Counted from the stretch's first letter, positions 9,630 to 42,446 are shown. The stretch is 64,000 nucleotides of DNA from a bacterium (GCA_020444065.1 JAHLLQ010000010.1:11677-75676), one strand, 5' to 3'. Notes: generated by a model not told the origin, from the sequence alone. Numbers and translations: made by a program.

Positions 9630-9705
9630 GGCTCGGCAATCCTGGCATTTGAATGGCTTTACAGACCCTTGCGGGGCACGCGCACCGGCGCATTGCCCCG
9701 CGACG

Positions 9706-10743
9706 ATGATGATTATGACCGATGAGAATGGTACCAACCAGGAAACATTTACCGCCCCGCCGGAATCGGCGGGCGTTCGGCTCGATACGTGGCTGGGCCG
9801 GCGGCAGGAGGTTCACAGCCGGACGTTCTTTCAGCAATTGATCAAGGACGGCCGAGTTCTGGTGAACGGCGAACCGGCGAAGCGCAGCATGACCCTGGAG
9901 GGCGGCGAGGAGGTGACGATTGACTTCCCGCCGGCGGAAGATCCGTGGCCGCATCCTCAAGATATCCCGATCGATGTGTTGCACGAGGATGACGATATCA
10001 TCGTCGTGAACAAGGCGTCGGGGATGGTGGTGCATCCGGCAGCAGGTAATCCGGACGGGACGCTGGTGAATGCGTTGTTGCATCGCTTCCCGGATCTGCC
10101 GGGGATCAACGGTGTGAAGCGCCCGGGGCTCGTGCATCGGTTGGACCGTGAGACGAGCGGTGTGCTGGTGATCGCGAAGAACGACCAGGCGATGAAGATT
10201 CTCTCGGGCCAGATTCGCGAGCGGATCATGAAGCGGCGCTACCTGGCGCTGGTGATCGGCGAGCCGGATTGGGATGTTCACACGGTGGAGGCGGCGATCG
10301 GTCGTCACGAGCATTATCGCATCAAGCGTTCGGTGGATGGCGCGGGTGCGAAGAACGCGATCACGCACTTGCATTTGCTGGGGCGGTTGCGCGGGTTTTC
10401 GTTGCTGGAGTGTCGGCTCGATACGGGACGGACGCACCAGATTCGCGTGCATTGCACGCACATCGGTCTGCCTATTGTGGGCGATGAATTGTATGGTGGG
10501 ACGCAACACCGTGCGCTTGAGAAGGTTCGTAACGAGGAATCGGAAATCCGGACGGCGTTCCTGCGTTTCGGTCGGCCGTTTCTGCACGCGCGGTTGCTTC
10601 GATTCCGTCATCCGGCGGATGGCCGTTGGGTGGAATTCTGTGCACCGATTCCGGATGATATGAAGACTTTGTTGGAAGTGCTGGTTCCACGAATCGACGT
10701 GGAGCGTTTGATGCCGGAAACCGGCGATGAGGATGGTTCATGA
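9706..10743 (+). CDS. rluD: 23S rRNA pseudouridine synthase, RluA/RluD family with S4 domain
   Basis: S4 domain (RLDTWLGRRQEVHSRTFFQQLIKDGRVLVNGEP). Catalytic motif HRLDRETSGVLVIAKN. Start set at ATGATGATTATG 9706; the track ORF starts at TTG 9649. Confidence 0.85.
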   Translation: MMIMTDENGTNQETFTAPPESAGVRLDTWLGRRQEVHSRTFFQQLIKDGRVLVNGEPAKRSMTLEGGEEVTIDFPPAEDPWPHPQDIPIDVLHEDDDIIVVNKASGMVVHPAAGNPDGTLVNALLHRFPDLPGINGVKRPGLVHRLDRETSGVLVIAKNDQAMKILSGQIRERIMKRRYLALVIGEPDWDVHTVEAAIGRHEHYRIKRSVDGAGAKNAITHLHLLGRLRGFSLLECRLDTGRTHQIRVHCTHIGLPIVGDELYGGTQHRALEKVRNEESEIRTAFLRFGRPFLHARLLRFRHPADGRWVEFCAPIPDDMKTLLEVLVPRIDVERLMPETGDEDGS

Positions 10744-13184: not shown

Positions 13185-13340
13185 GGAAGGGACTCCTTTT
13201 GGGACGGGGCGAAGTGCAGAATTGCGGGCGGTGCTGTGCGCAATGAGCCCGCTGCATCCGTACCGATCACCGGAACCGAGCAAATCGAACAACGACAAGA
13301 AAAAAATCAGGCGCGTTGGAAGTTTTTTGAGGTCAGACGT

Positions 13341-14174
13341 CTAGCCCTGGCCAAGTTCCTTCGACCGGTTGGTTGCGGCTTCGATAGCAGCGACCATGGT
13401 TTCGAGGAATTTGCCTTCTTCGAGGACTTCCATTCCGGCCTGGGTCGTGCCGTTGGGGCTGGTAACCTGGCGGCGGAGTTCCTCGGGGGTGAGGCGGTGT
13501 TGCTTGGCCATGAGAGCGGAGCCGTAGACCATCTGGAGGACGAGACGATGGGCGTCTTCCTCGGGGATGCCAAGCTTCCGACCGGCCTTGTAGAGGATTT
13601 CGATGAGGTAGAAGACGTAGGCGGGCCCGGAGCCGGTGAGGCCGGTGATGGCGTCCATGAGATCGGGTTCGACGACGGCAGTGACGCCGACGCTGGCGAA
13701 GAGGGCCTGGGTGAGGAGGACGTCCTCGTCGGTGGCGTGCTCGCCGGGGGAAACAGCCGTGGCGCCGGCCTGGATCAGGGCCGGGGTATTGGGCATGGTG
13801 CGAACGACGCGCGGCTTCGGGTTCAGGTCGTTGCGGATCTCGTTCTCGATCGTCTCGGTGCGTGTGCCGGCGATGATGGAGATGAAGAGGTGCTCCGAGC
13901 GTGTGAAGGGGGCGATCTCGGTGAGGACGCGGCGCTGGTCCTGGGGCTTCACGGCAAGGAGGACGATGTCGCATTCCTCGACGATAGCCTGGTTGTTTTC
14001 CTTTGGGACGACGCCGAGGGAATCGGCCAACTGGGCCAGGCGGTCCTTGCGGACGTCGGACATCATGATGCGGCTGGGCGAAACGAGGGTGGCCGCGGTG
14101 ATGCCGCGGGCGAGGGCCTCGGCCATGTTGCCGGCGCCGATGAATCCGATTTGTACGTGATGCAGTCTCTTCAT
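13341..14174 (-). CDS. proC: Pyrroline-5-carboxylate reductase
   Basis: 277 aa. NAD(P)-binding IGFIGAGNMAEAL; P5CR C-terminal dimerisation motifs (SPNGTTQAGMEVLEEG). Confidence 0.9.
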   Translation of the reverse strand: MKRLHHVQIGFIGAGNMAEALARGITAATLVSPSRIMMSDVRKDRLAQLADSLGVVPKENNQAIVEECDIVLLAVKPQDQRRVLTEIAPFTRSEHLFISIIAGTRTETIENEIRNDLNPKPRVVRTMPNTPALIQAGATAVSPGEHATDEDVLLTQALFASVGVTAVVEPDLMDAITGLTGSGPAYVFYLIEILYKAGRKLGIPEEDAHRLVLQMVYGSALMAKQHRLTPEELRRQVTSPNGTTQAGMEVLEEGKFLETMVAAIEAATNRSKELGQG

Positions 14175-17060: not shown

Positions 17061-18482
17061 TTAGAAGGCGCCCTTGCCTTTCAAGACGGCGGGCACGGTG
17101 CGAATCAGAATCTCTGTGTCGAGCAAGAGCGACTGATTCTTAATATAATAGAAGTCGTACTCCATATTCAAATGCAGCGGCAGGTTTTTTCGCCCGACAA
17201 CTTGCCAGAGGCCGGTGACGCCGGGTTTCACGTCGAGGCGGCGCTTCTGCCATTCTTCATATTGCTCGACGATGAAGGGCATTTCGGGACGCGGCCCGAC
17301 CATGGACATATCGCCCTTCAGAACGTTCCACAGTTGCGGCAGTTCGTCGAGGCTCGTCTTGCGGAGCCAGCGTCCGACGCGGGTGATGCGCGGGTCTTCC
17401 TGGCTGGTCGGCGCGACAGCATAGGCCTCCGCATTCGTGTGCATGGTGCGGTATTTGTAGAGACGGAATTTGCGTCCATCGCGTCCAACGCGTTCCTGCG
17501 CGAAGATTGCCGTGCCGGGCGAGTCCTTTCGAATCCAAAGGACGATCCACCAATGGAAGAGCAGGATCCAGGTGGCGACTCCGATCAGGGAGACGCTGAG
17601 ATCGAAGGCGCGCTTTGCGACGGCCTGGTGAATCGGCAGGTGGCCGTCGCGCAGCGTGACGACGGGGAACTGCGCAATTTCATCGACCTTCGCGCGCGAT
17701 GTGATAACGCCAAACAGGTTGGAGACGAGTTGAATGCGGAGGCCTCGGAGTTCGCTGAGGCTGATCAGGTTGAGTTGCTCGTCGGGCGAAAGGTGCGGAA
17801 CGGCGAGGAAGACTTCTTCGATTTGATGGCGATGGGTGATTTCTTCGAGTTCGAAGGCATCGCCGAGCATGGGAATGTCTTTGGGGAGATCCGCGGAGTC
17901 CTGGTCGTTCGGATGGCGGACAAAACCAACCATCTCGAACCCAACGTCAGCGTGCCGGAGAAGGGACTCGTGGACCTCGGCGGCGAGTTCGCCGGTGCCG
18001 ACGATGGCAGCTCGGACGAGGCCGCGGCCGCGTTGGAAGGCGCTCCATTTGAGGCGACGGACGGCGGTCCGGCTGGCGTAGAGGTAGATAAACCCATACA
18101 GGCCGGCGAGCAGGATAACGGCGCGGCCGAGATCGAGTTCCTTCAGGAAGTAGCCGATCACCATCATGTAGAGCAGGTAGTGGTAGCTAGCCTTGATAAG
18201 GGCGCCCCACGCGTTAAGCGACGAAAGGCGCCGGCGAACGACGTACAGGCCAAACAGCGAGCAGTTAATCAGGCCCGTGAGGACGACGAGAGCGAAGGCG
18301 TGCTTGTAGGGTTCAAACTCGTTGATGGGACCCATCCAGCGACCGAGGGCGGCGCGCGATTCGTAGGCGATCCACCAGGACGCGCTGAAGCCGAGAATGT
18401 CGGCAACGACGAGAAGCACCGTGGGCCACGGTGTCTTCCAGATCGAACCGTTGTTCTTTGAATCGCGCATCATGGCGACCAT
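17061..18482 (-). CDS. Polyprenyl-phosphate sugar phosphotransferase (bacterial sugar transferase, WbaP/WcaJ-like, exopolysaccharide/LPS initiation)
   Basis: C-terminal conserved block [13 protein letters not shown]...[17 protein letters not shown]...[23 protein letters not shown]-terminal TM region. Start set at Met 135 of the track ORF (MVAMMRD); upstream Pro/Arg-rich translation judged non-coding. Confidence 0.8.
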
Positions 18483-18592
18483 TGCCCACCAGGACTGCCC
18501 ACGGGCGCAACCGAATCGATGCAGCAGGGGGTTCTCATTGTCCCATCTCGGAAGCGCTTGCGCTTCAGCGGGGAAGGCCGCACATTGCCGGT

Positions 18593-18922
18593 ATGGAGGC
18601 GCCCATGGCGAAGTCGACCCCTGAATCGGAACATCGTCTGCCTTACCAGGAGGCTCTTGGTTTGCTGGAGACGCGTGGGCTGGTGCCGGCGCTTGAGGCG
18701 GCGGATGCGATGCTGAAGGCGGCCCAGGTCGAGTTGCTGGGGCATGAGCGTATCGGCGGCGGCGTGGTGACGGTGATGATCCGCGGGGATGTGGGCGCGG
18801 TGCGGTCGGCGATCGATGCGGGAACAGAGGCAGCGCGCCGCGTGGGTGAGTTGCTGGGCGTTCATGTGATTCCGCGTCCCGCACGCGAGGTGGATGGCAT
18901 TCTGCCGGGGGATGGCGAGTAG
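18593..18922 (+). CDS. Bacterial microcompartment shell protein, BMC-H (PduA/EutM/CcmK-type)
   Basis: [77 protein letters not shown] is near-canonical BMC-H (PF00936). Confidence 0.8.
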
Positions 18923-19786: not shown

Positions 19787-19974
19787 GTTCGCCCCCTTCG
19801 GGGACGATTCAGAGCCAGCCAGTCTACCCCGAGTTCCCTGTCGGTCACTCGGGGTCATTCAGCTTGGCCGCCCTTCGGGCGACCGCATCCTGCGGGAGAT
19901 AGCCACGGATCTGTTTGGCAATCAAGCCGACGGGTTTCTGCGGGGGTTCAGGGCGCGAACGTTTCTTGGATAAA

Positions 19975-20215
19975 TCAAAGACTCTGGAGCTTGGGCAAGG
20001 ATCAGCCTTTGCCAAGGCTCCGGCGGACAAGGTGGAGCCGACGAGGCGCTCGCGAGGTGCTCGCTTGCCCTGGGCTGGTATGCTGAATCCCCCTTGGGGA
20101 TTCTTGGTCGCGCGTGGGCCAGGTTGATGGGTGGATGGAAGGAACGGAGAGGCGGCGTCACTGGGACTTGAGCAAGGATGCTCAGGTCACCTCAGTTCAC
20201 AAGCTCGCTTGCTGG
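19975..20215. repeat. Solo copy of the ~213-bp structured repeat family (see 24329-24912)
   Basis: ...gccctgggctggtatgctgaatcccccttggggattcttggtcgcg...cttgagcaaggatgctcaggtcacctc... aligns to the tandem unit at 24357-24569. Confidence 0.85.
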
Positions 20216-20221
20216 GTTACG

Positions 20222-22743: not shown

Positions 22744-23736
22744 ATGAGCGCGATGGTCGTGTTCGTCTCGGTGGTGGCATCGGTGGTTCCGCTGACGGCG
22801 GTGCTGCTGGTGGTGTGGTGGCTGGATCGGTACGAGCGCGAGCCATTGTGGACGCTGGCGCTGGCGTTTGCGTGGGGGGCTTTCGGGGCGACGATGTTCT
22901 CGGCTCTGCTGGAGGTGATCCTGCAGGTGCCGGTGGCGTTCGTATTGGATGCGGAGCATCAGCAGTATTTTCTCGCGATTGTGGCGGCGCCGCCGATTGA
23001 GGAGTTCTTCAAGGGCCTGTTCATCGTCGGGCTGCTGTTCCTGGGGCGCTGGCTGGATAACCTGACGGACGGCGTGATCTACGGGGTTGCGGTGGGGCTG
23101 GGGTTCGCAATGGCGGAGAACTTCGCGTATTTCTTGCAGAGCTATGCAAGCGGCGGCGTGAGTGCATGGGTGACGGTGATCGTGTTTCGGACGCTGTTCA
23201 CGTCGGCGATGCACGCGGCGGCCACGGCGACTTTGGGTGCGTGCCTGGGGTTCGGCTGGCAACGGGCGATGCGGCCGGCTGGGATGGTCCTGCTGGCGCT
23301 GGGGGGCTATTCAGCGGCCGTCGTGATGCATTTCATCTGGAACAGCCTGGCAGTGTTGAGTGCGATGACGGAACACCTGGGGTTCAGTCTGATCGGCGCG
23401 ATGTTGATTGTGGGGGCGATTATCTTGTACCTGATCGTTCTGCAGGTGGCGTTGCATCACGAGCACAAGTTGCTGCTGCGGGAGTTGGAAGGCGAGGCGG
23501 CGCAAGGGTACTTCCCGGCGGAGCACGCGGCGGCCGTGGCGAGTTCGATCCGCCGGCGGCAGGACGATTGGCTGGATCCGCGAGTGGATCAGCATGCTTA
23601 TGTTGCGGTGGCGGTTCGGTTGGCCATGGCAAGAAGTCGGTGGAGATTCAGCCAGGGCCAGACTCGTGAGGAGTTAGCCTGGAGGATCAATGACTTGAGG
23701 AAGGAGCTGGCTAAGCTGCGCTACGACGTACTATAA
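22744..23736 (+). CDS. prsW: PrsW-family intramembrane metalloprotease (anti-sigma-factor protease-like)
   Basis: Polytopic. Signature EEFFKG, ENxxY (MAENFAYF) and HxxxN-like motifs. Confidence 0.75.
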   Translation: MSAMVVFVSVVASVVPLTAVLLVVWWLDRYEREPLWTLALAFAWGAFGATMFSALLEVILQVPVAFVLDAEHQQYFLAIVAAPPIEEFFKGLFIVGLLFLGRWLDNLTDGVIYGVAVGLGFAMAENFAYFLQSYASGGVSAWVTVIVFRTLFTSAMHAAATATLGACLGFGWQRAMRPAGMVLLALGGYSAAVVMHFIWNSLAVLSAMTEHLGFSLIGAMLIVGAIILYLIVLQVALHHEHKLLLRELEGEAAQGYFPAEHAAAVASSIRRRQDDWLDPRVDQHAYVAVAVRLAMARSRWRFSQGQTREELAWRINDLRKELAKLRYDVL

Positions 23737-23739
23737 GGT

Positions 23740-24260
23740 TTTTTAATGTTCTTCTTAAGAGAAAGCAGCAGTAGTACTAGGGCCTGTGAGAACAGGGGAG
23801 AACGCTTCAAGCGGCTGGATTTCTTCGAGTTAGATGGGGTTGCAGGTCTGGAAGAGCTGGGGACGGATTTGTGGGCGATTGTGAAAAGATAGTCGATGGC
23901 GCGCGCGTGTCCGAATTCACAGCCTTGTAGCAGTGGAAAGCCTGTGAAAAGTCCATCTGGGAAGAAAATCGAATATTAAGATTTGATTAACCTGGGGTTA
24001 CGGAATATTTGGGGGTGGGTTTCAACGGTACTCCGCGGATGAGCTTTTCCACAGAACTTATCCACAGGTGGGACAGTGCGAATCCGCGATTCATGATTTC
24101 ATGTAAGATCAATTTTTTCAATATTCTAAAGTGTTGTAACGTTATTTATATCCGTTCATAAATCGCGAGTAATTCACAGGGCCTGTGGATAACTTTTGTG
24201 CGAAAAAGTTTACGTTAATTGAGTCACTTTGGCGCGGCGATCTTTCGAGTAGTCTCATAA
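23740..24260. other. AT-rich intergenic island with DnaA-box cluster and DUE-like stretch: putative oriC (or strongly DnaA-regulated region)
   Basis: Perfect DnaA boxes TTTTCCACA 24045-24053, TTATCCACA 24058-24066, TGTGGATAA (rc) 24184-24192. 1-mismatch boxes near 23881, 23941, 24172. AT-rich run caattttttcaatattctaaagtgttgtaacgttatttatatccgttcataaatcg 24110-24165. Confidence 0.55.
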
Positions 24261-24328
24261 TTCGTGGGGGGTTGGGAGATGGGGGTGTTGCACGCCTTCA
24301 GCGTGCGGGGTCTGGGGACCTATGGACC

Positions 24329-24912
24329 CAGGGCGGCGCTCGCGAGGTGCTCGCTTGCCCTGGGCTGGTATGTTGAATCCCCGTTGGGGATTCTTGGTCG
24401 CGGGTGGGCGAGGTCGGCGGGTGGGTGGAAGGGACGGAGGGGCGGCGTCACTGGGGCTTGAGCAAGGATGCTCAAGTCACCTCAAGAAGACGTTGTTGCA
24501 GCCTTCCACTTTCGCCAAGGCTGCGGCGGACAAGGTGGAGCCGACGAGGCGCTCGCCAAGGGCTCGCCTGCCCTGGGCTGGTATGTTGAATCCCCGTTGG
24601 GGATTCTTGGTCGCGGGTGGGCGAGGTCGGCGGGTGGGTGGAAGGGACGGAGGGGCGGCGTCACTGGGGCTTGAGCAAGGATGCTCAAGTCACCTCAAGA
24701 AGACGTTGTTGCAGCCTTCCACTTTCGCCAAGGCTGCGGCGGACAAGGTGGAGCCGACGAGGCGCTCGCCAAGGGCTCGCCTGCCCTGGGCTGGTATGTT
24801 GAATCCCCGTTGGGGATTCTTGGTCGCGGGTGGGCGAGGTCGGCGGGTGGGTGGAAGGGATGGGGTGGGCGACGTCACTGGGGCTTGAGCAAGGATGCTC
24901 AAGTCACCTCAA
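24329..24912. repeat. Tandem array (~2.7 copies) of a 213-bp structured repeat; unit starts at 24357, 24570, 24783
   Basis: Exact 213-nt periodicity read directly. Each unit has hairpin A GAATCCCC-gtt-GGGGATTC and hairpin B TTGAGCA-agga-TGCTCAA followed by GTCACCTCAAG. Confidence 0.9.
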
Positions 24913-24935
24913 GAAGCTAGTTCGCGGGGCCTCAA

Positions 24936-27182
24936 TCAGGAGTCGATCTTCTTGAGGCGGGAGAAGTTGAGGGTGATTTCCTGGCTTCGGCCGTCGTCGA
25001 ATTCGACGTAGACTTTGGAGGCGCTGAAGCCGGCGGAGACTTCGGTGATGGTGCCGGGGCCGAGGACTGGATCTTCGACGCGATCGCCGACGTTGAAGCC
25101 GGCACGGCGGGTCTGCTTCGCGCGGCGCATGCCGGAGAGGGGCGAGACGGAGCTGCTGGCGGGGGAGCGGCGCGCCCAGGAGGAAGCGCTCGGGCGGCTG
25201 GAGTAGCCGCTGTATCGGCTGCGTCCGGAGAGGCCGAGGGTTTCCTGGCCGAGCTGGTCGAGGACTTCCTGCGGGAGCTCGCGCAGGAAGACGGATGGTT
25301 CGGTGTAATCCCATTGGCCGTAGGTCATGCGGCGTTCGGCGCGGGAGAGGTAAACGCGCCGGCGCGCGCGGGTGAGCGCGACGTAAAAGAGGCGGCGTTC
25401 TTCTTCGAATTGTTCCGGGTTATCGACGGTGCGGCTGTTGGGAAAGACGCCCTGGTCGAGGGCAACGATGAAGACGTAGTCGAACTCGAGGCCCTTTGCG
25501 TTGTGGACGGTCATGAGACTGACTTTGGGCGAGTCGTCGCGTTCTTCGCGTTGGGAATCGAGCGCCATGGTCTCGAGGAAGAACGCGAGGGAGTGGTCGG
25601 CGTATTCGGCCTCGAATTCGGAAACGACCGTTTCGAGTTCGTCGATGTTCTCGAGTCGCGCTGCGCCATCGAGGGATTCCGGATCGCCGACGCCCTGCTT
25701 TCGATAGTCCGTGTCTTCGAGGATCGCCTTCAAGATCTTCGATGTCGGTTCCTCGGCTGCCATGACGTGCCACTTCTTTACATCGGCAAGGAATTTCTCG
25801 AGCCCTTTACGGGCTTTACCTTTAAAGGCGTCTTCGGCGAGAAGTTGACGGGCGGCTTCGAATTGGCTGCAGCTCCGGAAAACGGCGCGCGAGGCGATAT
25901 CGGAGAAGGACTTTGCACCAATTCCACGCGTCGGAACGTTGACAATGCGTTGGAATGCAAGGTCGTTGGTTGGTTGATCGGCCAGGCGAAGGAAAGAGAG
26001 GAGATCCTTGATTTCGCGCCGTTCATAAAACCGCATTCCGCCGATGATGCGATAAGGAACCTTGGCGCGGATGAAGGCATCTTCAAATGGGCGCGAGATG
26101 CGATGGCTGCGATAGAAGATGGCGACATCCTCGGGGTTCGCATCCTGGGCGTAGAGGAGGGTTGAGATGCTCTTCGCAACCTGCTCGGCCTCTTCGCGAT
26201 CGTCCGTACCGCTGATTGTGTAGAATGGATCGCCAAGTTCCTTTTCGGTCCAGAGTTTCTTACCGATGCGCATCGAGTTGTTTTCGATGACGGCGCCGGC
26301 GCCTTTCAGAATGTTTCCAGCAGACCGATAATTCTGTTCCAGGCGGATGAGTTTTGTATCTGGGAATTCCTTCTGGAATCCAAGGAGATTGGAAACATCC
26401 GCGCCACGCCAGGAGTAGATCGACTGATCTTCGTCGCCCACGACGCAGATGTGATGATGGTCCTGGACGAGGAGTTTTACCAATTCGAACTGGCTGTAGT
26501 TAGTATCCTGGAATTCATCGATCAGGACATAGCGGTACTTGTCGGCCCAGCGTTTCCGAACTTCTTCGTGTTCGCGGAACAGGCGCACGCAACGGAAGAT
26601 GAGATCTTCGAAATCGAGCGCGTTATTATCATTCAACACGCGGTCGTAGTGTTCGTAGATTTCGGCGTAGGGAATCTCCGACGAGTCGAACTCCTCGCGG
26701 CACTCGGTCGGGGTCAGGAGTTTCATTTTGGCGAGTGTGATAAAGTGGAGCGCCTGGCCCGGTTTGACGCGCTTTGGGTCGATGTCGCAGGCCTCCATGG
26801 CTTTCTTCACGGCGGTCTGCTGGTCGTGCTCGTCGAGAATTGCAAAGTTCCGTTCGAGGCCTGCCGATGCGGCTTCGCGGCGCAGGATGGCAGCACAGCG
26901 GCTATGGAATGTCGAAATAGCCAGGGAGGGGTCGTCCGGGACACTCAGCAAATAGCAAATCCGCGAACGCATTTCTCGCGCGGCCTTGTTCGTGAATGTG
27001 ACGGCGAGAATTTGCCACAGCGGAATACCCACCACATGCGAAAGGTACGCAATGCGGTGGGTAATGACGCGGGTCTTTCCGCTGCCTGCGCCGGCGATGA
27101 CCATGAGCGGGGTGCCATGGTGCGTGACGGCTTCCTGCTGCTGCGGGTTCAGGTTTGCAAGGATTTGCTGTTCCAGATCCAT
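24936..27182 (-). CDS. uvrD: ATP-dependent DNA helicase UvrD/PcrA (superfamily 1A)
   Basis: 748 aa. Walker A GAGSGKT, helicase motifs, C-terminal Tudor-like tail. Start ATG overlaps upstream stop (ATGA). Confidence 0.9.
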   Translation of the reverse strand: MDLEQQILANLNPQQQEAVTHHGTPLMVIAGAGSGKTRVITHRIAYLSHVVGIPLWQILAVTFTNKAAREMRSRICYLLSVPDDPSLAISTFHSRCAAILRREAASAGLERNFAILDEHDQQTAVKKAMEACDIDPKRVKPGQALHFITLAKMKLLTPTECREEFDSSEIPYAEIYEHYDRVLNDNNALDFEDLIFRCVRLFREHEEVRKRWADKYRYVLIDEFQDTNYSQFELVKLLVQDHHHICVVGDEDQSIYSWRGADVSNLLGFQKEFPDTKLIRLEQNYRSAGNILKGAGAVIENNSMRIGKKLWTEKELGDPFYTISGTDDREEAEQVAKSISTLLYAQDANPEDVAIFYRSHRISRPFEDAFIRAKVPYRIIGGMRFYERREIKDLLSFLRLADQPTNDLAFQRIVNVPTRGIGAKSFSDIASRAVFRSCSQFEAARQLLAEDAFKGKARKGLEKFLADVKKWHVMAAEEPTSKILKAILEDTDYRKQGVGDPESLDGAARLENIDELETVVSEFEAEYADHSLAFFLETMALDSQREERDDSPKVSLMTVHNAKGLEFDYVFIVALDQGVFPNSRTVDNPEQFEEERRLFYVALTRARRRVYLSRAERRMTYGQWDYTEPSVFLRELPQEVLDQLGQETLGLSGRSRYSGYSSRPSASSWARRSPASSSVSPLSGMRRAKQTRRAGFNVGDRVEDPVLGPGTITEVSAGFSASKVYVEFDDGRSQEITLNFSRLKKIDS

Positions 27183-32333: not shown

Positions 32334-32434
32334 AAGCGGTCGCCGAATTCTGACGTTGAGGTGACGTACATCGAACCTGCGGCGGTTCTTATCGAAGGCG
32401 TCGCAACGACTGCAAAAGGAATTTGGGCGCGCGG

Positions 32435-34984
32435 TCAGGGCTGGTACTTGATGATGACAGCGCCGAAGGTGTGAAGGCGTGGGATCAGGAGGCGGACGAA
32501 GCCGTCGGTCTGTTCGAAGTCGACAGGGAAGGGCTGCATCATCGCGGGATCGTCGGGGCTGCCGTAGAGGACCTGCGTGACAGTGGCATTCGCCGGCAGA
32601 TTGATGGCGATTTCTTCGTTTGTGAGCGGTTTGACGTCGGGGCGAGGGGCGTTCCAGGTCATTTGCTCGCCGTTGTTGAGGAGCGTGACGGTGATTTCGC
32701 CGCGGTCGTTCTGGAATCCGCGAACGACCGTTCCCGGCATGTAGGACGTCGTTTCGTAATTGGCGACGTTGCGCCCGTGATTCCGTCCAAACAGCAGGGC
32801 GTCGAACATGTTGTAATCGCGAACGATTTGAACGTTTTGCAGCGGGATAGCCACGTTGTCCGGATAGTAGAGCGAGTTGAGGGCGTGCATCTGGTGGTTC
32901 AATTCATCGGGTTCGCCGACGACCATGAGGGATCCGCCGCCAGTCATGCAGATTCCCATCATGAGGCGCAGGCTGTCCGCGGGCCAGTAGGGGGGATCGG
33001 TGAAGCCGGCGTCGGGCGGGTACATTTTGAGGACGACGCGCTGACCGGCCGGTGCGCGGTGGCGATAGCAGATGTCGACGGTGTCTTCGAGGCCGCCCTT
33101 GCAACCGGCCCAATTTTCGATGAAGATGAAGTCGGTGATGTGGTACATTTTCTCGATTCCGAACTCGCAAACGCAGTTGAAGGAAACCGCCGCGTCGGAC
33201 TTCACGGCGTGAGACATTTCGTAAACGTCTTCGATGAACTCGGCGATGATTTCGGAGAGAAGGCGGCCGCTGTGTTTGCTGCCTTCGGAGTAGTAGCGTT
33301 CGTTTGCGGGATGGCCGTAGCTGTCGACTTCGAAGCCGTCGAAGGAGACAAGATCGTCGGGCGATTTGTCCAGTGTCCGGCGGAGTTCCTTGATGATGTA
33401 ATCGTGCCAAGGCGTGTCGTCGGCGATGGCCATCAGCCAGAACCAGACGGGCTCGCCGGCGGCTTTGGCTTCAGGGACGGTCGTGATGCGACCGTTGAAG
33501 ATGCGCGGTTCGCCGCCTGGCGTTGTCATCGGGTAGGGATGGGCTTCGTAGACGCTCTTCGATGCGGCATAGGCAGCGACATAAGCGATTGAGAGAATGC
33601 CGCGCTGGTGACCGGCGTCGATTTTGCCCTGAATATCTTTCGCGTAGACCTTGTTTCCAAAGAAGGGTTCGAACTCGTAGACTTCTTCGGTGGGCGCATA
33701 GTCTCCGTGAGCTGGGAAGTAATCGTAGAACTCGACGCCGTTGATGAACAACTTCGCGAGCATGTCGGCTTTCTTCGCGTAGTTGTCGGAAATCCGATTC
33801 CAGTTTGCGTAGAAGCCATAGCGCAAATCGTCGGGGATATCTTGCACGACGGGAAGGACGATGTAGTCGCGATCGAGAATCTTGTTGTTCTGGTCGAGGA
33901 GGACTTCCAGGCCCAGAGGCCCCTCGCGATCGGGCGTGGAGAGAGGGACGATCAGTTCGTTCTGAGCGATCGGAATTGTGGTCGAAAGCGTTGTAACAAG
34001 ATCGTTGGAGATGACGAGGCGAGCGTTGCATCCGTCGGACGGGAGTTCCCCAAAGCGAACAAGGAGCTGGTTCTTCTCGCCGGGCTTGATCCAGGTCTTT
34101 TCCAGTTCCACCGAAGAGATTCGCGGGCCGGTCATTGGGCGATCGAAAGCGGGGATTTTCGTTGGGTTGAGTTCGCGACCGGGAACTGTGCGGACGTATC
34201 GATCGGGAAGCAGAGAGCGCAGATCGAGCACCGTATTCTCGTCGACGTCGCGTGTATTGACGCTCGGATCGGCGAACCACTCAGCGTCACCGCTCGAGTC
34301 CTCGGCGACGAACTTGTAGCGGATCACGCCGGGCGAGAGATCGATCTTGCGATACCAAACGTCATTGGGGCCGGGGAACATGCGGAAGGCCGGATCATCA
34401 ACGACTCCATCACGATTGTTCCCCCAGGAGTTAAATGAACCGGCGAGGAAGACTCGTTCTGCATCGGGTTTGTGGTAAGTGAAGAGGAAAGCCTTGCCGT
34501 CATCGATCGGTTGTGGTGCGGCTGCGGTATTGAGGGAGATGTTGTACTTCGTGGCGAACTCCTGCGGCGTCATACCGGCTTCTTCGAGGACCGGGGCAAA
34601 GTAGATGGTCTGCTCGCCGGGCGATTCGATTTTGAAGCTCTTGCCCGGACCCACCCAACCATCGCCTGGATCGGCGTTCGTGTCGCAGGCCCATTCGTAG
34701 AGATGGCCCTTGCCCATGGGCAGGTTGACTGCGATCGACCACACGTGATCGCCGGCCGTCGCATCGCCGTGGGTTCCATCGTCGTACAGGGGATAGCGTT
34801 TGTAGTCATTCCAACCGGAGGCGAACCTGCCGGTCTCGGGATCGAAGTTGGCAGCGTAGTAGACGCGGTCGAGAGGTTGCTCGCGGAATGTGTCGTCGTA
34901 GACAAGCGTCACGGACGCGGCGGAGGCCGCCGTGCCGAGCAGCATGAACAGGCCAAGCGATTGAAGTGCTCCGTTCCTTCTCAT
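32435..34984 (-). CDS. Secreted multidomain carbohydrate-active protein: N-terminal CBM-like domain, CBM48/E-set-like domain, TIM-barrel with GH66-like DGFEVD...ENW motifs (paralog A)
   Basis: Signal peptide. SGWNDYKRYPLYDDGTHGD..AGDHVW block shared with two paralogs. WYRKIDLSPGVIRYKFV (CBM48-like). FDGFEVDSYG and IFIENW ~75 aa later. Start ambiguous (34984 or 35014). Confidence 0.5.
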   Translation of the reverse strand: MRRNGALQSLGLFMLLGTAASAASVTLVYDDTFREQPLDRVYYAANFDPETGRFASGWNDYKRYPLYDDGTHGDATAGDHVWSIAVNLPMGKGHLYEWACDTNADPGDGWVGPGKSFKIESPGEQTIYFAPVLEEAGMTPQEFATKYNISLNTAAAPQPIDDGKAFLFTYHKPDAERVFLAGSFNSWGNNRDGVVDDPAFRMFPGPNDVWYRKIDLSPGVIRYKFVAEDSSGDAEWFADPSVNTRDVDENTVLDLRSLLPDRYVRTVPGRELNPTKIPAFDRPMTGPRISSVELEKTWIKPGEKNQLLVRFGELPSDGCNARLVISNDLVTTLSTTIPIAQNELIVPLSTPDREGPLGLEVLLDQNNKILDRDYIVLPVVQDIPDDLRYGFYANWNRISDNYAKKADMLAKLFINGVEFYDYFPAHGDYAPTEEVYEFEPFFGNKVYAKDIQGKIDAGHQRGILSIAYVAAYAASKSVYEAHPYPMTTPGGEPRIFNGRITTVPEAKAAGEPVWFWLMAIADDTPWHDYIIKELRRTLDKSPDDLVSFDGFEVDSYGHPANERYYSEGSKHSGRLLSEIIAEFIEDVYEMSHAVKSDAAVSFNCVCEFGIEKMYHITDFIFIENWAGCKGGLEDTVDICYRHRAPAGQRVVLKMYPPDAGFTDPPYWPADSLRLMMGICMTGGGSLMVVGEPDELNHQMHALNSLYYPDNVAIPLQNVQIVRDYNMFDALLFGRNHGRNVANYETTSYMPGTVVRGFQNDRGEITVTLLNNGEQMTWNAPRPDVKPLTNEEIAINLPANATVTQVLYGSPDDPAMMQPFPVDFEQTDGFVRLLIPRLHTFGAVIIKYQP

Positions 34985-35020
34985 ATCGTCACCTCTCTGT
35001 TTGTTCCCTACCACTTCATG

Positions 35021-36175
35021 TCATTTGCGCGCCAGAAAATCCCACACGGCAGATGGGGCTGTCGTCTCGTCGAAGTTCAGGGTCTTCCACTCACCCGAGG
35101 AGTCGCAGAAGGCCAGGGTTGGTACACGATAGACTCCCATTTGAGCCAGTTCGGTTTGGAAATCGGGGTCGTCTCCAGACAGGAAGAAGAGCGTCTTTCC
35201 TGCGAGGAGTTTCTTTGCGTCCTCGTGAAGGAGGTACTTGCGTTCGAAGGCCCGGCAGGCAGTGTTTCCGTTCAATCGCACGTAGACGAAGACCGAGCCG
35301 CTGTTCTTGATCGCCTGGGCGACGCCTAGAGGGCTATAGGGCTGCCAGGAGTTGTTGGTCTGTGAGGATGTGTTCGATTGTTCGGCGGCCGGTGTGCGCA
35401 GGCGATCGAGGTTGATGATGGAATTGCCATCGCTGTCGGCTTCACGAACGTTGGGGTCGCCGATCCAGTCGAATTTGCCGTCGGTCTTCTCGAGGACGAA
35501 CTTGTATCTCTGCGGGCCGGTTGGGATATCGATCGCCTGGTACCAAAGACCGTTCGGAAGCGATTCCATCAGGCACGAGATATCTGTGATGACGCCGCTT
35601 TCGTTGTTGGCGAATTCGTTGAAGTCGCCTGCCAAGTAAACGCGGCGGGCCGATGGCGCCCAGACGCGAAAGAGAACCTTGCCCTGGTCGTTGAGGCGAA
35701 CGGGCGGGCCGGTGGTGGTCATATCGACGCCATATTGCTTGCTGAGTTGTTGGGGGGAGAGGTCGCTTTCGGGCATGATGGAATACGCGAGGACTTCGCG
35801 CGGCGTATCGTCGGGTACGCGGAAGGATGGGCATGGCCCGAGCCAGCCGTTAGAAGATTCCGAATCGGCATCGGCAGCCCATTCATATGTCTGTTCGGCG
35901 TTGGGCTGAATATTCAGTTTCCATCCCCAAACGTGGTCGCCGGCTTGCCGATCGCCATGCTGGCCGTCGTCAAAGAGTGGGAAACGTTTGAAATCGTTCC
36001 ATCCGGAATCGTACTCACCGGTACCCGGGTGCACATTCAGAGCACAGAAGATCTGTTCGTGAGGTGTCGGGTTTCTGCTGTCGTCGAAGATCAATGTCAC
36101 CTCGGCAGCGGATGTCGTTCCGGCCAATCCCAGGATGGCCAGAGCGGACAGAATCGATGTGGCTGTCTTTCTCAT
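35021..36175 (-). CDS. Secreted paralog B: same N-terminal CBM-like + CBM48-like domains, C-terminal thioredoxin-like domain, no catalytic barrel
   Basis: Signal peptide MRKTATSILSALAILGLAGTTSA. SGWNDFKRFPLFDDGQHGDRQAGDHVWG; LWYQAIDIPTGPQRYKFV. Start fixed at ATG 36175. Confidence 0.5.
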   Translation of the reverse strand: MRKTATSILSALAILGLAGTTSAAEVTLIFDDSRNPTPHEQIFCALNVHPGTGEYDSGWNDFKRFPLFDDGQHGDRQAGDHVWGWKLNIQPNAEQTYEWAADADSESSNGWLGPCPSFRVPDDTPREVLAYSIMPESDLSPQQLSKQYGVDMTTTGPPVRLNDQGKVLFRVWAPSARRVYLAGDFNEFANNESGVITDISCLMESLPNGLWYQAIDIPTGPQRYKFVLEKTDGKFDWIGDPNVREADSDGNSIINLDRLRTPAAEQSNTSSQTNNSWQPYSPLGVAQAIKNSGSVFVYVRLNGNTACRAFERKYLLHEDAKKLLAGKTLFFLSGDDPDFQTELAQMGVYRVPTLAFCDSSGEWKTLNFDETTAPSAVWDFLARK

Positions 36176-36195
36176 GTTGATACTCCCGGTCGTGA

Positions 36196-37089
36196 TTAAC
36201 CTTTCAATCCCGTCATGGCGATGCCTTCGATGAACGTGCGCTGTGTGAAGAAGAAGAGCACGACAATCGGCATAACCACGAGGGTTGAGGCGGCCATTAG
36301 CAGGTTCATATCGGTGCCGCCGTGTTTGCTTTGGAAGTGTTGCAGGCCAAGTGCGAGCGTGAACTGGTTCTGGTCCGTGAGGTAAATCAACGGGCCCATG
36401 AAGTCGTTCCACACCATCATGAAGGTGAAGAGTGCAACGACGGTGATGGCGGGTTTTGCGAGTGGTGCAACGATCAGGACAAATGTTCTGAACGGTCCGC
36501 AGCCATCGATTTCGGCGGCTTCGGTCAGGTCCTTCGGGATCGTCATGAAGAACTGGCGCAGCAGAAAGATGTTGTAGGCCGAACCGAAGAAGGCGGGCAC
36601 CCAGAGGGGCATGAATGTTCCGACCCAGCCAAGCGAGCGGAAGATGGAGTACATGGGAACCATGAGGACGGGGAAGGGAATCATCATGGTTGCGAGGCTG
36701 GCGGCGAAGATGGGATCGCGTCCGCGCCAGTTCACACGCGAGAACCCATACGCCGCGAGCGCGCAACTGACAACTGTGCCGCCGACACAGAGCACGCAAA
36801 GGTACAGCGTATTCATGGCGTATTTCCAGAAGGGGATCTTCTGGGTGGCTTCGATGTAGTTCTGCCAGCGGAATGGACTTGGGATCCATTGCGGCGGGAT
36901 CTGCATGGCCTGAGTGAGTTCCTTGAAGGACGTGGTCAGCATCCACAGGAATGGAAAGATGAAGAGAACCGAGAAGAGGATGAGCACGGCGTAAAGGGCA
37001 ACGCGATTAGCGATGTGCCCAAAATCAACGTTCTTCTGGCGTGGCGCGGCGGCGGGCGCATTCATGACGAGGCTCTCAGGTTCCGGCAT
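36196..37089 (-). CDS. Carbohydrate ABC transporter permease (MalG/UgpE-like)
   Basis: 6 TM helices. EAA-loop region and C-terminal LVVMPIVVLFFFTQRTFIEG. Confidence 0.85.
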   Translation of the reverse strand: MPEPESLVMNAPAAAPRQKNVDFGHIANRVALYAVLILFSVLFIFPFLWMLTTSFKELTQAMQIPPQWIPSPFRWQNYIEATQKIPFWKYAMNTLYLCVLCVGGTVVSCALAAYGFSRVNWRGRDPIFAASLATMMIPFPVLMVPMYSIFRSLGWVGTFMPLWVPAFFGSAYNIFLLRQFFMTIPKDLTEAAEIDGCGPFRTFVLIVAPLAKPAITVVALFTFMMVWNDFMGPLIYLTDQNQFTLALGLQHFQSKHGGTDMNLLMAASTLVVMPIVVLFFFTQRTFIEGIAMTGLKG

Positions 37090-37957
37090 AGTAGAGGTAC
37101 CTTCTTGAGACGAAATGTGCGACCGTGGTGAGCACCGCGATCATGAGGAAGAGAATCAATGCCATGGCGCAGGCGTAGCCCATGTTGAGGTATTTGAATG
37201 CGTGATCGAAGAGGTACATGGTGTAGAAGAGAGTGGAGCGCGCGGGGCCTCCGCCGGTCATGACGTACGGGACGGCGAAGACCTGGAGGACGCCGATGCA
37301 GCCCATGATGACATTGAAGTAAATGACCGGCGAGATCATCGGCAGCGTGACGTTGGCGGTTTTTTGCCACCAGTTGGCGCCGTCGAGCGTTGCGGCTTCG
37401 TAGAGGGCTTTGGGAACGTCCTGCAAGCCGGCGAGGTAGATGACGACCGCGTTGCCGACTCCCCAAAGACCGGTGAGGACAAGCGCGGGTTTCGACCAGG
37501 AAGTATCGCCGAGCCAATCGGGTCCGTTAATGTGTGCGAGGGAAAGCGCGTAGTTGATGACGCCGAATCGGCCGTTGAACATCCACTGCCAGAGGATCGC
37601 GAGCGCGACAAGCGGGACGAGCGACGGCAGGAAGAAGATGGTACGGAAGACGGAGCGGCCGATGACCTTTGCGTTCAGCAGCAGGGCCAGTCCGATGGAG
37701 AGAACCGTGCCGAGCGGGAGCGCGAGGAGGGCGAAGAAAACCGTGTTCCACAACGATTGCCAGAAGACCGGATCGGTGGAGAGGTCGCGGTAGTTTCCGA
37801 CGCCGATGAAGATCGGGTCCTTGAGCACGGAGTAATCGCAGAAGCTGTAGTAGAGCGCCATGCCGGACGGCAGGAGAATGAAGCAGGAGAGGCCGATCAG
37901 CCATGGCGCAATAAACAGAAGACCGGTGATGAGGCTGTTTCGTTCGCGTTGGGTCAT
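37076..37957 (-). CDS. Carbohydrate ABC transporter permease (MalF/UgpA-like)
   Basis: Polytopic. EAATLDGANWWQKTANVTLP EAA motif. Overlaps downstream permease start. Confidence 0.85.
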   Translation of the reverse strand: MTQRERNSLITGLLFIAPWLIGLSCFILLPSGMALYYSFCDYSVLKDPIFIGVGNYRDLSTDPVFWQSLWNTVFFALLALPLGTVLSIGLALLLNAKVIGRSVFRTIFFLPSLVPLVALAILWQWMFNGRFGVINYALSLAHINGPDWLGDTSWSKPALVLTGLWGVGNAVVIYLAGLQDVPKALYEAATLDGANWWQKTANVTLPMISPVIYFNVIMGCIGVLQVFAVPYVMTGGGPARSTLFYTMYLFDHAFKYLNMGYACAMALILFLMIAVLTTVAHFVSRRYLYYAGT

Positions 37958-39318
37958 TCTTCCGACCTCCACTCTTCTTTGCGTTCCTCGGCGATGCGTT
38001 TCCATTGTTGGAGCGCTCGGTCGAGTTTCGGTTGGATGCGTTCGCGCACGACGGTCAGGGCCTCGTCGGGTTCGGCTTTATCGCGCCAGATGAGGTCGAA
38101 CGCGTTGGTGAATTCATCGCGGAGTTCGTTGAAGATCTGCGTCTTGGGCGTGTAGCGCGCATTCGGCGATTCGGCCAGGTTGCGGAAGACGCGGATATAA
38201 GGATTTGGGTGTTGCTTGTAGAAATCTTCGGAGACTTCGCGCAGGGGTGAGAACTTGCGCTGGCCGAGGCAGAGCATTTCCATATTCTCCTGGCGCTGGA
38301 CGAACTTGATAAAGTCCCACGCTTCCTCTTTGTGGCGCGCGCCGCGTGGAATGACGAGGACGTCGGCTTCGCAGATCGTGACATCTTTCAGTTCCGGGTC
38401 GCTGGACGGGAACGGCGCGACGGCCCAATTGAGGTCGGGATTGTACTTTTCGACGAAGTTCGCCATCCAGACGCCCTGGAGCTCCATCGCGACTTTGCCG
38501 GAGATGAAGAGGTTTTGCGCGGAGCTGAACTGGCCGCCGGCGGACTGGAAGACCTGGAGGGTCTTGAAGCCGTACTTCTCGGGGTAGCTTTGTACCCAAT
38601 CGTAGGCGGCGATGTTCTCGGGCGAGTCCGTGACGATCTTTGTTCCATCTTTGCTGACGAGGCGACCGCCGAACCAATAGCACCAGCGCTCGTTCCACCA
38701 GCCGGGTTCGGTCGGGCTGAAGCCGAGCTGGGTGATCTCGCCGTCTTCGTCGATCTTGGTGAGCTTCGCGGCGTACTCGTCGAGTTCTGCGATCGTGCGC
38801 GGCGGCCGATTGGGATCGAGGCCGGCTTCGCGGAACATGTCTGTGTTGTAGTGCAGCGCGAGTGTGGCGGGTGTGCTCGGCAATCCCCAGATGAAACCGT
38901 GGTGTTCGCATTGCTCGCTGATGACGGGCAAGTAGCGGTCCATGTCGAAGCCGTCGCGTTCGATCAGTCCATCGAGCGGTTCGAGTGCGCCCATATCGGC
39001 GTAGGTGTAGAGTCGCCAGGCCCAGAAGCCGGCGACGTCGGGCGGGTTGCCTCCGGAGGTTGCGAGCAGGAGTTTCTGCTCGATCTGGCCGGTGCTGAGG
39101 AATTTGACGAAGACCTTGTCTTGCGATGCGTTGTACTTGTCGACGACGGCGCGCATCGCGTCCTTCTCGAAGTCCTCCCACTTTTCCCAGTACTCGACGA
39201 TGACGCGGCCATCCTCTGTGCGGTCGGGTTTTTCGCGCACGCAGGAGGTCAATCCAGTCATCGCGGCGACGAGCACCAGGCCGGCCAACAGAACGTTGAT
39301 TCGATTCTTGAGGCGCAT
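37954..39318 (-). CDS. Extracellular solute-binding protein (family 1) of sugar ABC transporter, lipoprotein
   Basis: Signal peptide/lipobox LTSCV. SBP_bac_1-like length and motifs. Start at ATG 39318. Confidence 0.85.
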   Translation of the reverse strand: MRLKNRINVLLAGLVLVAAMTGLTSCVREKPDRTEDGRVIVEYWEKWEDFEKDAMRAVVDKYNASQDKVFVKFLSTGQIEQKLLLATSGGNPPDVAGFWAWRLYTYADMGALEPLDGLIERDGFDMDRYLPVISEQCEHHGFIWGLPSTPATLALHYNTDMFREAGLDPNRPPRTIAELDEYAAKLTKIDEDGEITQLGFSPTEPGWWNERWCYWFGGRLVSKDGTKIVTDSPENIAAYDWVQSYPEKYGFKTLQVFQSAGGQFSSAQNLFISGKVAMELQGVWMANFVEKYNPDLNWAVAPFPSSDPELKDVTICEADVLVIPRGARHKEEAWDFIKFVQRQENMEMLCLGQRKFSPLREVSEDFYKQHPNPYIRVFRNLAESPNARYTPKTQIFNELRDEFTNAFDLIWRDKAEPDEALTVVRERIQPKLDRALQQWKRIAEERKEEWRSEE

Positions 39319-39425
39319 GGAATACGTCTTCCGAAAACGGGATGTGCTAACTTGTTCAAACCTTGATCGTGGTCGATTGTTCGGGAGGTGCAATCCCTGG
39401 TTCGCGATTCCGCGGCATAGTGCGT

Positions 39426-41267: not shown

Positions 41268-41300
41268 GAGATCTCTCGATAGGGTTCAGTTGGGGTTTGC

Positions 41301-41843
41301 TTACGGTCCGTAGCGGTGGATATCGCCGAAGGAGACGGTGCCGTTGGTCGGGTCGTACTGCACGGGATCGGGGCTGGACTGGAGGCTTTCCTCGAGATCG
41401 GGGCCGAGGCTTTGGAGGCGCCACTTGGCGCTTTCTGCGCCCTCGTGACCGGGGAAGGACTGCCAGACCTGTGGCAGGACGGTGGCGGTGTCTTCTTCGC
41501 AGAGGTAGTCGAAGGTCCGCAGGGGATTGTCGTTATTGGACAGATCCGGGAAGGGGTCCTTTGGAATGGAGGTCATGTAGGCGACCGGGGTGGTGAGGCG
41601 GACCAGTCGTTCGGCGAAGGTCAGGAAGTAGCGCGGGGTGCCGTTTTGGGAGGGCGGGTAGTGGTTGTGGTCGACCGCGTAGGATTCGACCGCCGTAGCG
41701 AGCGAGCGCATGTCTGCCTCAGCGCGGCTGACCTTCGAGCGGGTCTGGGCTTCGAGGAAGTTCGGGACGGCGATGGCCGCAAGAATAGCGATGATAGCAA
41801 CAACGATGAGGAGTTCGATCAGAGTGAAAGCTCTGCGATTCAT
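41301..41843 (-). CDS. Prepilin-type N-terminal cleavage/methylation domain protein (type II pseudopilin-like)
   Basis: MNRRAFTLIELLIVVAIIAILAAIAVPNF class III signal. Confidence 0.6.
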   Translation of the reverse strand: MNRRAFTLIELLIVVAIIAILAAIAVPNFLEAQTRSKVSRAEADMRSLATAVESYAVDHNHYPPSQNGTPRYFLTFAERLVRLTTPVAYMTSIPKDPFPDLSNNDNPLRTFDYLCEEDTATVLPQVWQSFPGHEGAESAKWRLQSLGPDLEESLQSSPDPVQYDPTNGTVSFGDIHRYGP

Positions 41844-41884
41844 GGGGCATTCCTCCAGCGGTTTTGTCGAAGCGCTTCAACCCA

Positions 41885-41900
41885 TGGGCGTCGTTTTTGG
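41885..41900. promoter_or_regulatory. Predicted LacI-family operator palindrome (GTCGAAGCGCTTCAAC)
   Basis: Near-perfect 16-bp palindrome around central CG, 40 bp upstream of the pilin/GH/ABC operon start. Confidence 0.55.
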
Positions 41901-41984
41901 AGCGTTTCTGCGAGGGCGGGAAGACCGGGCTTTGGTCGGGAGAATGGGATGTTTGCTTGAGGAGCAGCGCTGACGTTAGGTTTC

Positions 41985-42000
41985 GTGTAAGCGCTTCAAC
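41985..42000. promoter_or_regulatory. Predicted LacI-family operator (GTGTAAGCGCTTCAAC)
   Basis: Second copy of the palindrome, 100 bp further upstream. Confidence 0.5.
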
Positions 42001-42155
42001 TGGGCGCGTCAAGAGAAAGTCGTTGGGGGCGTGCGGAAAGGTCGCGGGGGAGACCGAGGGGGCGGAAGCGGTTGGATTCGCCAGGCGTGAATATGGGGGT
42101 GTCAGGAACGTAGGAGGGGCAGAGATGAGCACACCTGGATGGACGGAGGCGGAGT

Positions 42156-42380
42156 ATGGGTCTTCTGATGCTGGTTTGCGTGGCGATCGTGTACTATCGA
42201 GCCGCGGAACATGATGGGAAGTCGGGGGGACTGGCCGTTCTGGCGTGCCTGGGATTGTGGTGGCTGCTGGGTTGGGCGGGGCTCGGGACGCTGCTGACTT
42301 GCGTGGCGCTGCTGGTGATTCTCTTCCTGGTGTATCCGACGCTGCAGGTCCTGGGAGAGCTGCTCGTAAAGGGCAAGTGA
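42156..42380 (+). CDS. Small hypothetical membrane protein (74 aa)
   Basis: Two predicted TM helices. Weak evidence. Confidence 0.3.
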   Translation: MGLLMLVCVAIVYYRAAEHDGKSGGLAVLACLGLWWLLGWAGLGTLLTCVALLVILFLVYPTLQVLGELLVKGK

Positions 42381-42430
42381 AGCCGAGCGTTTTCTGTTTG
42401 ACAGCCGCGGGGTGTGGGGCTACGGGTACT

Positions 42431-42446
42431 GTTGAAGCGCTTACAT
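42431..42446. promoter_or_regulatory. Predicted LacI-family operator (GTTGAAGCGCTTACAT) upstream of the lacI-family gene (autoregulation)
   Basis: Same palindrome, 49 bp upstream of ATG 42495. Confidence 0.5.

Follow-up and report, generated by a model that had tools for sequence, protein, structure and literature searches.

When a cluster of DnaA boxes lies beside AT-rich DNA in a bacterial chromosome, is it the chromosomal origin of replication (oriC), or a place where DnaA assembles away from the origin? The gap between prsW and uvrD in a 64,000-nucleotide stretch of bacterial DNA (GCA_020444065.1 JAHLLQ010000010.1:11677-75676; the window, hereafter) raises this question, as a first-pass annotation had seen a putative oriC there. 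Homologues of UvrD place the organism in the candidate phylum Sumerlaeota (BRC1). Part of the proposal stands, in that a DnaA-box array does adjoin unstable AT-rich DNA and its boxes and spacing are conserved; the identification as the chromosomal origin does not, as there is no switch in strand composition. The boxes are real, their clustering goes far beyond chance, constraint acts on them and on their spacing, and they do not coincide with a switch of replication polarity. Our preferred reading, at about even odds, is a DnaA-box cluster outside the origin, within one replichore of a Sumerlaeota chromosome, on which a DnaA oligomer would assemble; that DnaA occupies the site, forms an oligomer there and affects initiation is inferred.

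Three consensus-grade boxes anchor the cluster: box E (TTTTCCACA, 24045-24053, + strand), box F (TTATCCACA, 24058-24066, +) and box H (TGTGGATAA, 24184-24192, -), each of which a check of the 64 kb found exactly as first quoted. Boxes F and H, both perfect, are the sole two perfect TTATCCACA boxes of the window. The relaxed pattern TTWTNCACA has five matches in the window, for which 1.5 are expected, and three of the five fall inside 150 bp of the cluster. First-order Markov sequences yielded a comparable cluster (at least three relaxed or at least two perfect boxes) in 0 of 2,000 cases with the composition of the window and in 0 of 20,000 with the local AT-rich composition of the gap. At least five weaker conserved boxes accompany the strong ones within 23785-24192. 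Three sites near 23880, 23943 and 24170 that had been listed as one-mismatch boxes are weaker than claimed, with three, three and two mismatches to TTATCCACA, and are one mismatch away only from the relaxed TTWTNCACA. The box region is also present on two short metagenome contigs, with no difference from the window over that part.

The DNA around these boxes is AT-rich in a more restricted sense than an island filling the gap. The left part of the 1,199-bp gap holds the boxes, and 23737-24240 has 45% GC against 59% for the window, but the right half is a G+C-rich repeat. Within the left part, the tract at 24110-24165 that had been likened to a DNA unwinding element (DUE) has 25% GC and is inside 24093-24212, which the duplex-stability scan ranks as the least stable duplex of the entire window at scales of 40, 80 and 120 bp; among 40-mers, 23725-23764 ranks third from the bottom in stability. 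Boxes E/F and H face inward from either side of the central AT-rich spacer (24094-24168, GC 0.27). They also form the arms of a 24-nt inverted repeat (24045-24068 and 24182-24205, 83% complementary) that flanks 113 bp, box E being mirrored by box I (TGTGCGAAA, 24197-24205, -), which is weak. The two neighbouring genes, described earlier as divergent, in fact converge: prsW (22744-23736, +) and uvrD (24936-27182, -) both have their 3' ends at the gap.

What has evolution kept of this arrangement? One relative carries the locus, on a 19-kb contig (L139) from a metagenome-assembled genome (MAG) labelled Sumerlaeia_SLMS01 in ENA, with a UvrD and a PrsW that are 81% and 74% identical to those of the window. 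Its gene order is tricorn-uvrD-prsW-rlmN-folC-ubiA, with 552 bp between uvrD and prsW, and the order BMC-ubiA-folC-rlmN-prsW-cluster-uvrD-tricorn is common to both. Identity at fourfold degenerate (4-fold) sites of the four flanking genes is 0.46-0.55 (about 0.48), and by this measure neutral sites appear close to saturation. The gap aligns with 2 gap columns in 524. Of its 15 identical runs of at least 6 nt, 8 contain a DnaA-box core (TGTG or CACA), and 5 others fall in two non-box blocks. Eight box-like sites, A-H, are kept over 400 bp at positions within 1 nt; from one element to the next, the distances are 95, 33, 30, 33, 69, 13, 33, 79 and 14 in the window and 95, 32, 30, 32, 69, 13, 33, 79 and 14 in the relative. 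All three matches to TTWTNCACA in the 19 kb of L139 are in the homologous gap.

Individual boxes vary around their cores. Box A (TGTGAGAAC, 23785-23793, -) is weak, with four mismatches, and corresponds in L139 to TGTGGAAAC followed immediately by TGTGAACAT. Boxes B (23880-23888, -) and D (23943-23951, -) both read TGTGAAAAG; their counterparts are TGTGAAGAG, with the core TTGTGAA kept, and TGTGGAAAG, with AGCCTGTG kept. Box C (GAATTCACA, 23913-23921, +) is AATTTCACA in the relative and keeps TTCACAG. Box E is TTATCCACA there, and box F, in tandem with E across a 4-bp gap, is TTATTCACA. Boxes G (TAATTCACA, 24170-24178, +) and H stand head-to-head across 5 bp and are identical in both genomes, while box I is not kept.

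The two conserved blocks that are not boxes are TTAA-N7-TTAA and TCATGATTTCATG. The first (23976-23990) overlaps a palindrome, TAACC-TGG-GGTTA (23988-24000), giving a conserved, non-DnaA element at 23976-24000; it occurs once in 64 kb, where 0.07 occurrences are expected, and L139 keeps both half-sites but differs at two positions of the N7. The second is an AT-rich block (TCATGATTTCATGTAAG...TTTTCAA, 24091-24121, -) that contains the palindrome CATGA-TT-TCATG and is promoter-like on the - strand. Base composition is less uniformly preserved. In L139 the homologous left tract (9655-9734) has the lowest duplex stability of the 19-kb locus at both 40 and 80 bp, but the 103-bp interval equivalent to the central spacer has 50% GC, so the strong AT-richness of the centre is lineage-specific; clear AT-richness in L139 is confined to the left tract and the 24091-24121 block. 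The sequence 3' of box F (GGTGGGACAGTGCGAATCC) resembles the R1-DUE of E. coli (GGGCAGTGCGATCC), a likeness that L139 does not keep and that was treated as coincidence.

This alignment shows purifying selection on the boxes and on their spacing, a pattern that reads as the signature of a multi-protein DNA complex with a geometry that matters, and the TTAA-N7-TTAA/palindrome site probably binds an accessory protein. Beyond this one relative the arrangement fades. UvrD-anchored loci from more distant Sumerlaeota (L140-L146, 60-63% identity) have lost the synteny and have no box cluster. Scans anchored on PrsW in GTDB genomes and JGI metagenomes gave matches at most 40% identical, from other phyla, none with a cluster downstream of prsW, and 16 of the closest of these loci contain no relaxed boxes.

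Is this then the place where replication starts? Strand asymmetry in the window is so extraordinarily strong that the test can be made inside it. G outnumbers C on the + strand by about 3.4:1 at 4-fold sites (window genes, 3261-58075), the 4-fold GC skew of that strand is +0.55 to the left of the cluster (15 genes) and +0.48 to the right (14 genes), and 29 of 29 genes, in both orientations, are positive. Cumulative GC skew, the check that the first-pass annotation had itself named, rises monotonically over all 64 kb, and no minimum or switch marks the cluster. As the asymmetry is independent of gene orientation, it is of the replication-strand kind; the + strand is thus the leading strand across the whole window, and replication forks travel rightward over the cluster. 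Nor can a recent inversion be masking a switch, because the gene order is common with L139 and neutral sites have turned over since the split. Judged by these data, fork divergence in the window organism does not occur at the cluster.

The relative tells a similar story next to the cluster, where the 4-fold skew of its prsW, rlmN and folC agrees in sign with that of uvrD and tricorn across the cluster. Its skew does flip in the origin sense at the folC/ubiA junction (13274-13345, 70 bp), 3.6 kb from the cluster; the orthologous window genes around 19787-20221 show no skew change. The flip weighs little, because a second contig of the same MAG (L147) has several sign changes in 12 kb and in other Sumerlaeota loci the main signal is a C3>G3 bias of the coding strand. 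Skew in SLMS01 is weak and patchy compared with the extreme asymmetry of the window organism, and this suggests that the mutational or repair regime has changed in the lineage of the latter.

Gene content points the same way. Pfam scans of 40 open reading frames (ORFs) across the window found no dnaA, dnaN, gyrB, recF, parAB or mnmG; linkage to dnaA/dnaN or other origin-proximal genes is usual at origins but not universal. The scanned ORFs encode ordinary chromosomal functions, among them lpxD, moaE, rluD, trkAH, ubiA, folC, rlmN, uvrD, tricorn protease and several glycoside hydrolase (GH) loci. No parS site was found within three mismatches. Literature on Sumerlaeota (PMC8092238) contains no statement on oriC, dnaA or skew.

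How might a DnaA-box cluster within a replichore work? Domain IV of DnaA would bind the three consensus-grade boxes E, F and H, from which DnaA could spread cooperatively onto the five or six weaker, positionally fixed boxes, forming a higher-order complex over ~420 bp. At least one accessory protein would probably join at the TTAA-N7-TTAA site and the AT-rich block. Such a complex may titrate or sequester DnaA, or alter its activity state. As a rightward fork passes, the copy number of the locus would double, and the locus could therefore feed back on the timing of initiation, in the manner of the known secondary DnaA loci of B. subtilis and E. coli.

Several observations weigh against this reading. 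The conservation footprint rests on a single pairwise comparison, with one relative carrying the locus, and the skew and gene surveys cover 64 kb of a ~141-kb contig. No duplex of the window is less stable than the one inside the cluster. The cluster also has, in canonical orientation, a conserved module resembling the unwinding machinery of origins, which makes it more origin-like than the secondary clusters described so far. To our knowledge, the DnaA-trios that form part of such machinery are known only from origins.

The basal unwinding system (BUS) of oriC combines DnaA boxes, DnaA-trios and an AT-rich DUE (PMC8287927, PMC6669920). Its published rule calls for a DnaA box with at most two mismatches, a spacer of at most 16 bp and at least three NAN DnaA-trios in the correct orientation; the spacer is ~4 bp and was earlier called GC-rich, and BUS elements are predicted in ~85% of oriCs (PMC8287927). 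At the left edge of the cluster, an AT-rich tract (23737-23762, GC 0.27) directly 3' of the prsW stop would be the candidate unwinding tract. It is followed by six trio-like NAN triplets (AAG CAG CAG TAG TAC TAG, 23763-23780, +), the 4-bp G+C spacer GGCC (23781-23784), which is within a conserved run, ACTAGGGCCTGTG (23776-23788), and box A. The triplets stand 5' of the box read as TGTGNANAA, in the canonical orientation, in which trios precede a box in the TGTGGATAA reading. L139 has, in the same register, TAG TAA CAG CAC TAG-GGCC-TGTGGAAAC-TGTGAACAT, adjoining the least stable DNA of that locus; across the shared trios the middle A is kept in 5 of 5, while 5 of 10 flanking bases differ.

L139 conforms to the BUS rule, with GTTTCCACA, a 4-bp spacer and five trios. 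The window, with six trios and GGCC in register, fails it because the adjoining box A has four mismatches. None of the strongest boxes (E, F and H) has trios inside the 16-bp limit, and for E/F the first three NTN triplets are 23 nt away. The loose trio pattern also turns up by chance about eight times per 128 kb of the window, at other sites that are mostly in coding sequence, and the trio evidence at the left edge appears modest.

Among the alternatives, the one that survives best, though we think it unlikely, is a transcription element under DnaA control, either a promoter for an unannotated non-coding transcript or, where the transcripts of prsW and uvrD converge, a protein-DNA roadblock or a terminator, with the boxes as operators. 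There is a promoter-like TTGAAA-17-AATCAT with an upstream TG on the - strand (24121-24093), placed between the inward-facing boxes and with both hexamers kept in L139; boxes G and H together make a hairpin which, with the T-run after it, gets a terminator-like score in each genome; and DnaA acts as a transcription factor at several of the DnaA-box clusters (DBCs) of Bacillus subtilis (PMC3245932). But the DnaA-regulated promoter to which the first-pass annotation would have fallen back fits poorly, because each neighbour has its 3' end at the gap and neither offers a promoter to regulate. Nor is there a conserved ORF 3' of the promoter-like site, a terminator on the - strand or any strong RNA structure: folding z-scores of the gap reach only -1.8 and -2.2, attributable to the box inverted repeat, and Rfam, searched over the gap at gathering and E<=1 thresholds, gave nothing relevant. 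None of the small ORFs of the gap is conserved in L139, and a 48-aa ORF (23746-23892) called on metagenome contigs was rejected as a gene because it is interrupted there. The conserved segments are short and box-sized rather than a continuous, transcript-like stretch, and eight boxes over 400 bp at fixed spacing are more than an operator needs.

Somewhat less probable still is a relic, dormant or conditionally used origin that has kept its unwinding module and is normally replicated passively from the main origin. Such a history would reconcile origin-type anatomy with uniform skew, and synteny with distant Sumerlaeota, in which uvrD has other neighbours, breaks off at the cluster, as is compatible with a past rearrangement around an origin. 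Disuse, however, should bring decay, and here boxes and spacing are so strongly constrained that some current function is needed; the trio matches, moreover, are of a kind found loosely at about eight sites per 128 kb. We know of no bacterium whose natural chromosome has two DnaA-dependent origins. A related proposal, an origin-competent DnaA/BUS module inside the replichore that serves as a second origin, dormant or conditionally fired, or as a one-directional origin, strikes us as improbable; one-directional replication would account for uniform, extreme strand asymmetry on both sides.

That the locus is the active, bidirectional chromosomal oriC, unlinked to dnaA, we regard as very improbable. 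Its anatomy would suit an origin well: eight or nine boxes at conserved positions (three being consensus-grade), inward-facing pairs around the least stable duplex of the window, a conserved left-edge module of trios, GC spacer and box, a conserved accessory site and, in L139, a skew flip of origin sense 3.6 kb away. Yet extreme skew of the same sign extends at least 20 kb to the left and at least 40 kb to the right of the cluster, shared gene order and neutral turnover since the split leave no room for a masking inversion, and the L139 genes next to the cluster have one polarity on both sides, with the flip at folC/ubiA discounted by the sign changes of L147. The window also fails the BUS rule both at box A and, by 23 nt against 16, at E/F, and dnaA, dnaN, gyrB, parAB or similar genes were not found in the scanned ORFs.

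A chance cluster in acquired AT-rich DNA, the other fallback of the first-pass annotation, or a mobile-element remnant with 24-nt inverted-repeat ends is effectively refuted: the region is AT-rich relative to the genome, an 83%-complementary repeat does enclose 113 bp and a dispersed repeat family lies directly to the right, but the Markov sequences gave 0 of 20,000, the arms are DnaA boxes, a distant-mode search of a plasmid collection found no match, and the element is not acquired DNA because it is syntenic and conserved (at the same position and spacing in L139, which is without the 213-bp repeats), nor mobile because it is syntenic and single-copy in the window and all comparison loci, where a miniature inverted-repeat transposable element would be expected in multiple copies at variable sites.

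That neighbouring repeat occupies 24323-24916, the right half of the gap, as 2.7 tandem copies of a G+C-rich 213-bp unit on the downstream side of uvrD. Another copy, 92% identical, is found between ubiA and folC (20045-20194), fragments occur at 20008-20032, 53577-53603, 59709-59745 and 59938-59971, and hairpins form at two places in the unit, GAATCCCCGTTGGGGATTC and CTTGAGCAAGGATGCTCAAG. L139 does not have the unit, and metagenome assemblies made independently are interrupted at it. We considered the tandem array as iterons and rejected this, since it belongs to a dispersed G+C-rich family that L139 lacks and is unrelated to the boxes. A 188-aa ORF across it (24322-24888) is not a gene, its GC being flat by codon position. 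Repeat fragments also stand on both sides of a match to the Rfam family Acido-Lenti-1 RNA (RF01687) at 59850-59895 (+), with 44.7 bits against a gathering score of 37.

Other parts of the window differ from the relative or from their surroundings. Positions 1-3200 have a GC of 0.52, near-zero skew and three co-oriented ORFs, including a RES-domain protein (2137-3168), and are probably a recently acquired toxin-antitoxin or defence island. The ~11 kb at 32400-43600 encode a GH66, a CBM48 protein, an ABC sugar transporter, a GH125 and a LacI regulator; L139 is without them between the orthologues of a response regulator/hyp102 and a 646-aa protein, and by this comparison they appear to be a polysaccharide-utilisation insertion or deletion between close relatives. 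The BMC-domain (microcompartment shell) gene at 18614-18907 (+) is 89% identical to its L139 orthologue and is overlapped by an over-long sugar transferase ORF (17061-18884, -) whose true start must be further downstream. An aldolase gene between BMC and ubiA in L139 is absent from the window.

Secondary DnaA loci that tune initiation are known from a few model bacteria (datA and the DnaA-reactivating sequences (DARS) of E. coli, the DBCs of B. subtilis and a Streptomyces cluster), and these have no sequence in common. The Sumerlaeota candidate would extend the idea phylogenetically and be the first of its type in that phylum. For a candidate secondary DnaA locus, its positional conservation is unusually clean and its features are unusually origin-like. 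Because it combines such features with evidently not being the main origin, it offers a natural way to ask what makes one DnaA assembly fire and another only bind, and its 460 bp (23737-24205) make a compact substrate for in-vitro work with recombinant DnaA. Were it a true second or unidirectional origin, the result would be much bigger.

How, finally, does the locus compare with systems already described? With an oriC that has a BUS it shares multiple boxes, an AT-rich tract at the edge of the array, conserved spacing and, at that edge, five to six NAN triplets rich in 5'-TAG-3', a 4-bp G+C spacer and a correctly oriented box. Unlike such an oriC, it is not at an asymmetry switch or linked to dnaA/dnaN, and its trio-adjacent box is weak in the window. 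A second origin invites comparison through its accessory sites: Cori of Caulobacter crescentus contains five sites of the form TTAA-N7-TTAA for CtrA, an alphaproteobacterial protein. The single site here has the same half-site arrangement, is likewise embedded in a DnaA-box array and keeps its half-sites while the spacer varies, which by analogy suggests a winged-helix response regulator as its binder; the resemblance is formal only, with five sites in Cori against one here and no CtrA orthologue sought.

Closer to the function we favour are sites with several boxes in non-coding DNA away from the origin and constraint on both boxes and geometry. The locus is non-coding and inside one replichore, and such constraint is seen here from one relative. 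In E. coli, DARS1 and DARS2 are DnaA-reactivating sequences (PMC6868365), datA is a site of DnaA-ATP hydrolysis (PMC5742627, PMC10950094), and datA and DARS are evolutionarily constrained among strains (PMC4585315). The DARS, also in non-coding DNA inside a replichore, have a compact core with opposed boxes, as in the head-to-head G/H pair; that core is three boxes in ~60 bp, to which DARS2 adds IHF and Fis sites, whereas the locus spans 420 bp with at least eight boxes. With datA it shares a non-coding setting within a replichore, a few high-affinity DnaA boxes, an accessory site (for a bending protein at datA) and a geometry that matters. Unlike datA, which depends on IHF, its accessory site is a TTAA-N7-TTAA direct repeat, and hydrolysis of ATP is not an outcome that can be inferred from sequence; inspection by eye found no perfect IHF consensus, AATCAAATCTTAA (- strand, 23975-23987) being one base off WATCAANNNNTTR.

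The six DBCs of B. subtilis lie outside oriC and are stably bound by DnaA, and their deletion leads to early initiation (Okumura et al. 2012, PMC3245932); what counts appears to be the binding of DnaA as such, not any one gene under their control (PMC3245932). Like them, the locus is an intergenic, non-coding cluster of several DnaA boxes away from an origin. It differs in that several DBCs are upstream of regulated genes whereas it lies between two 3' ends, in that its binding is predicted, and in having very unstable AT-rich DNA and a trio-like module, neither described for DBCs. It has no sequence relationship with them and comes from a different, uncultured phylum. Its likeness to the DBCs, as to datA and DARS, would therefore be one of function and architecture, not of sequence homology.

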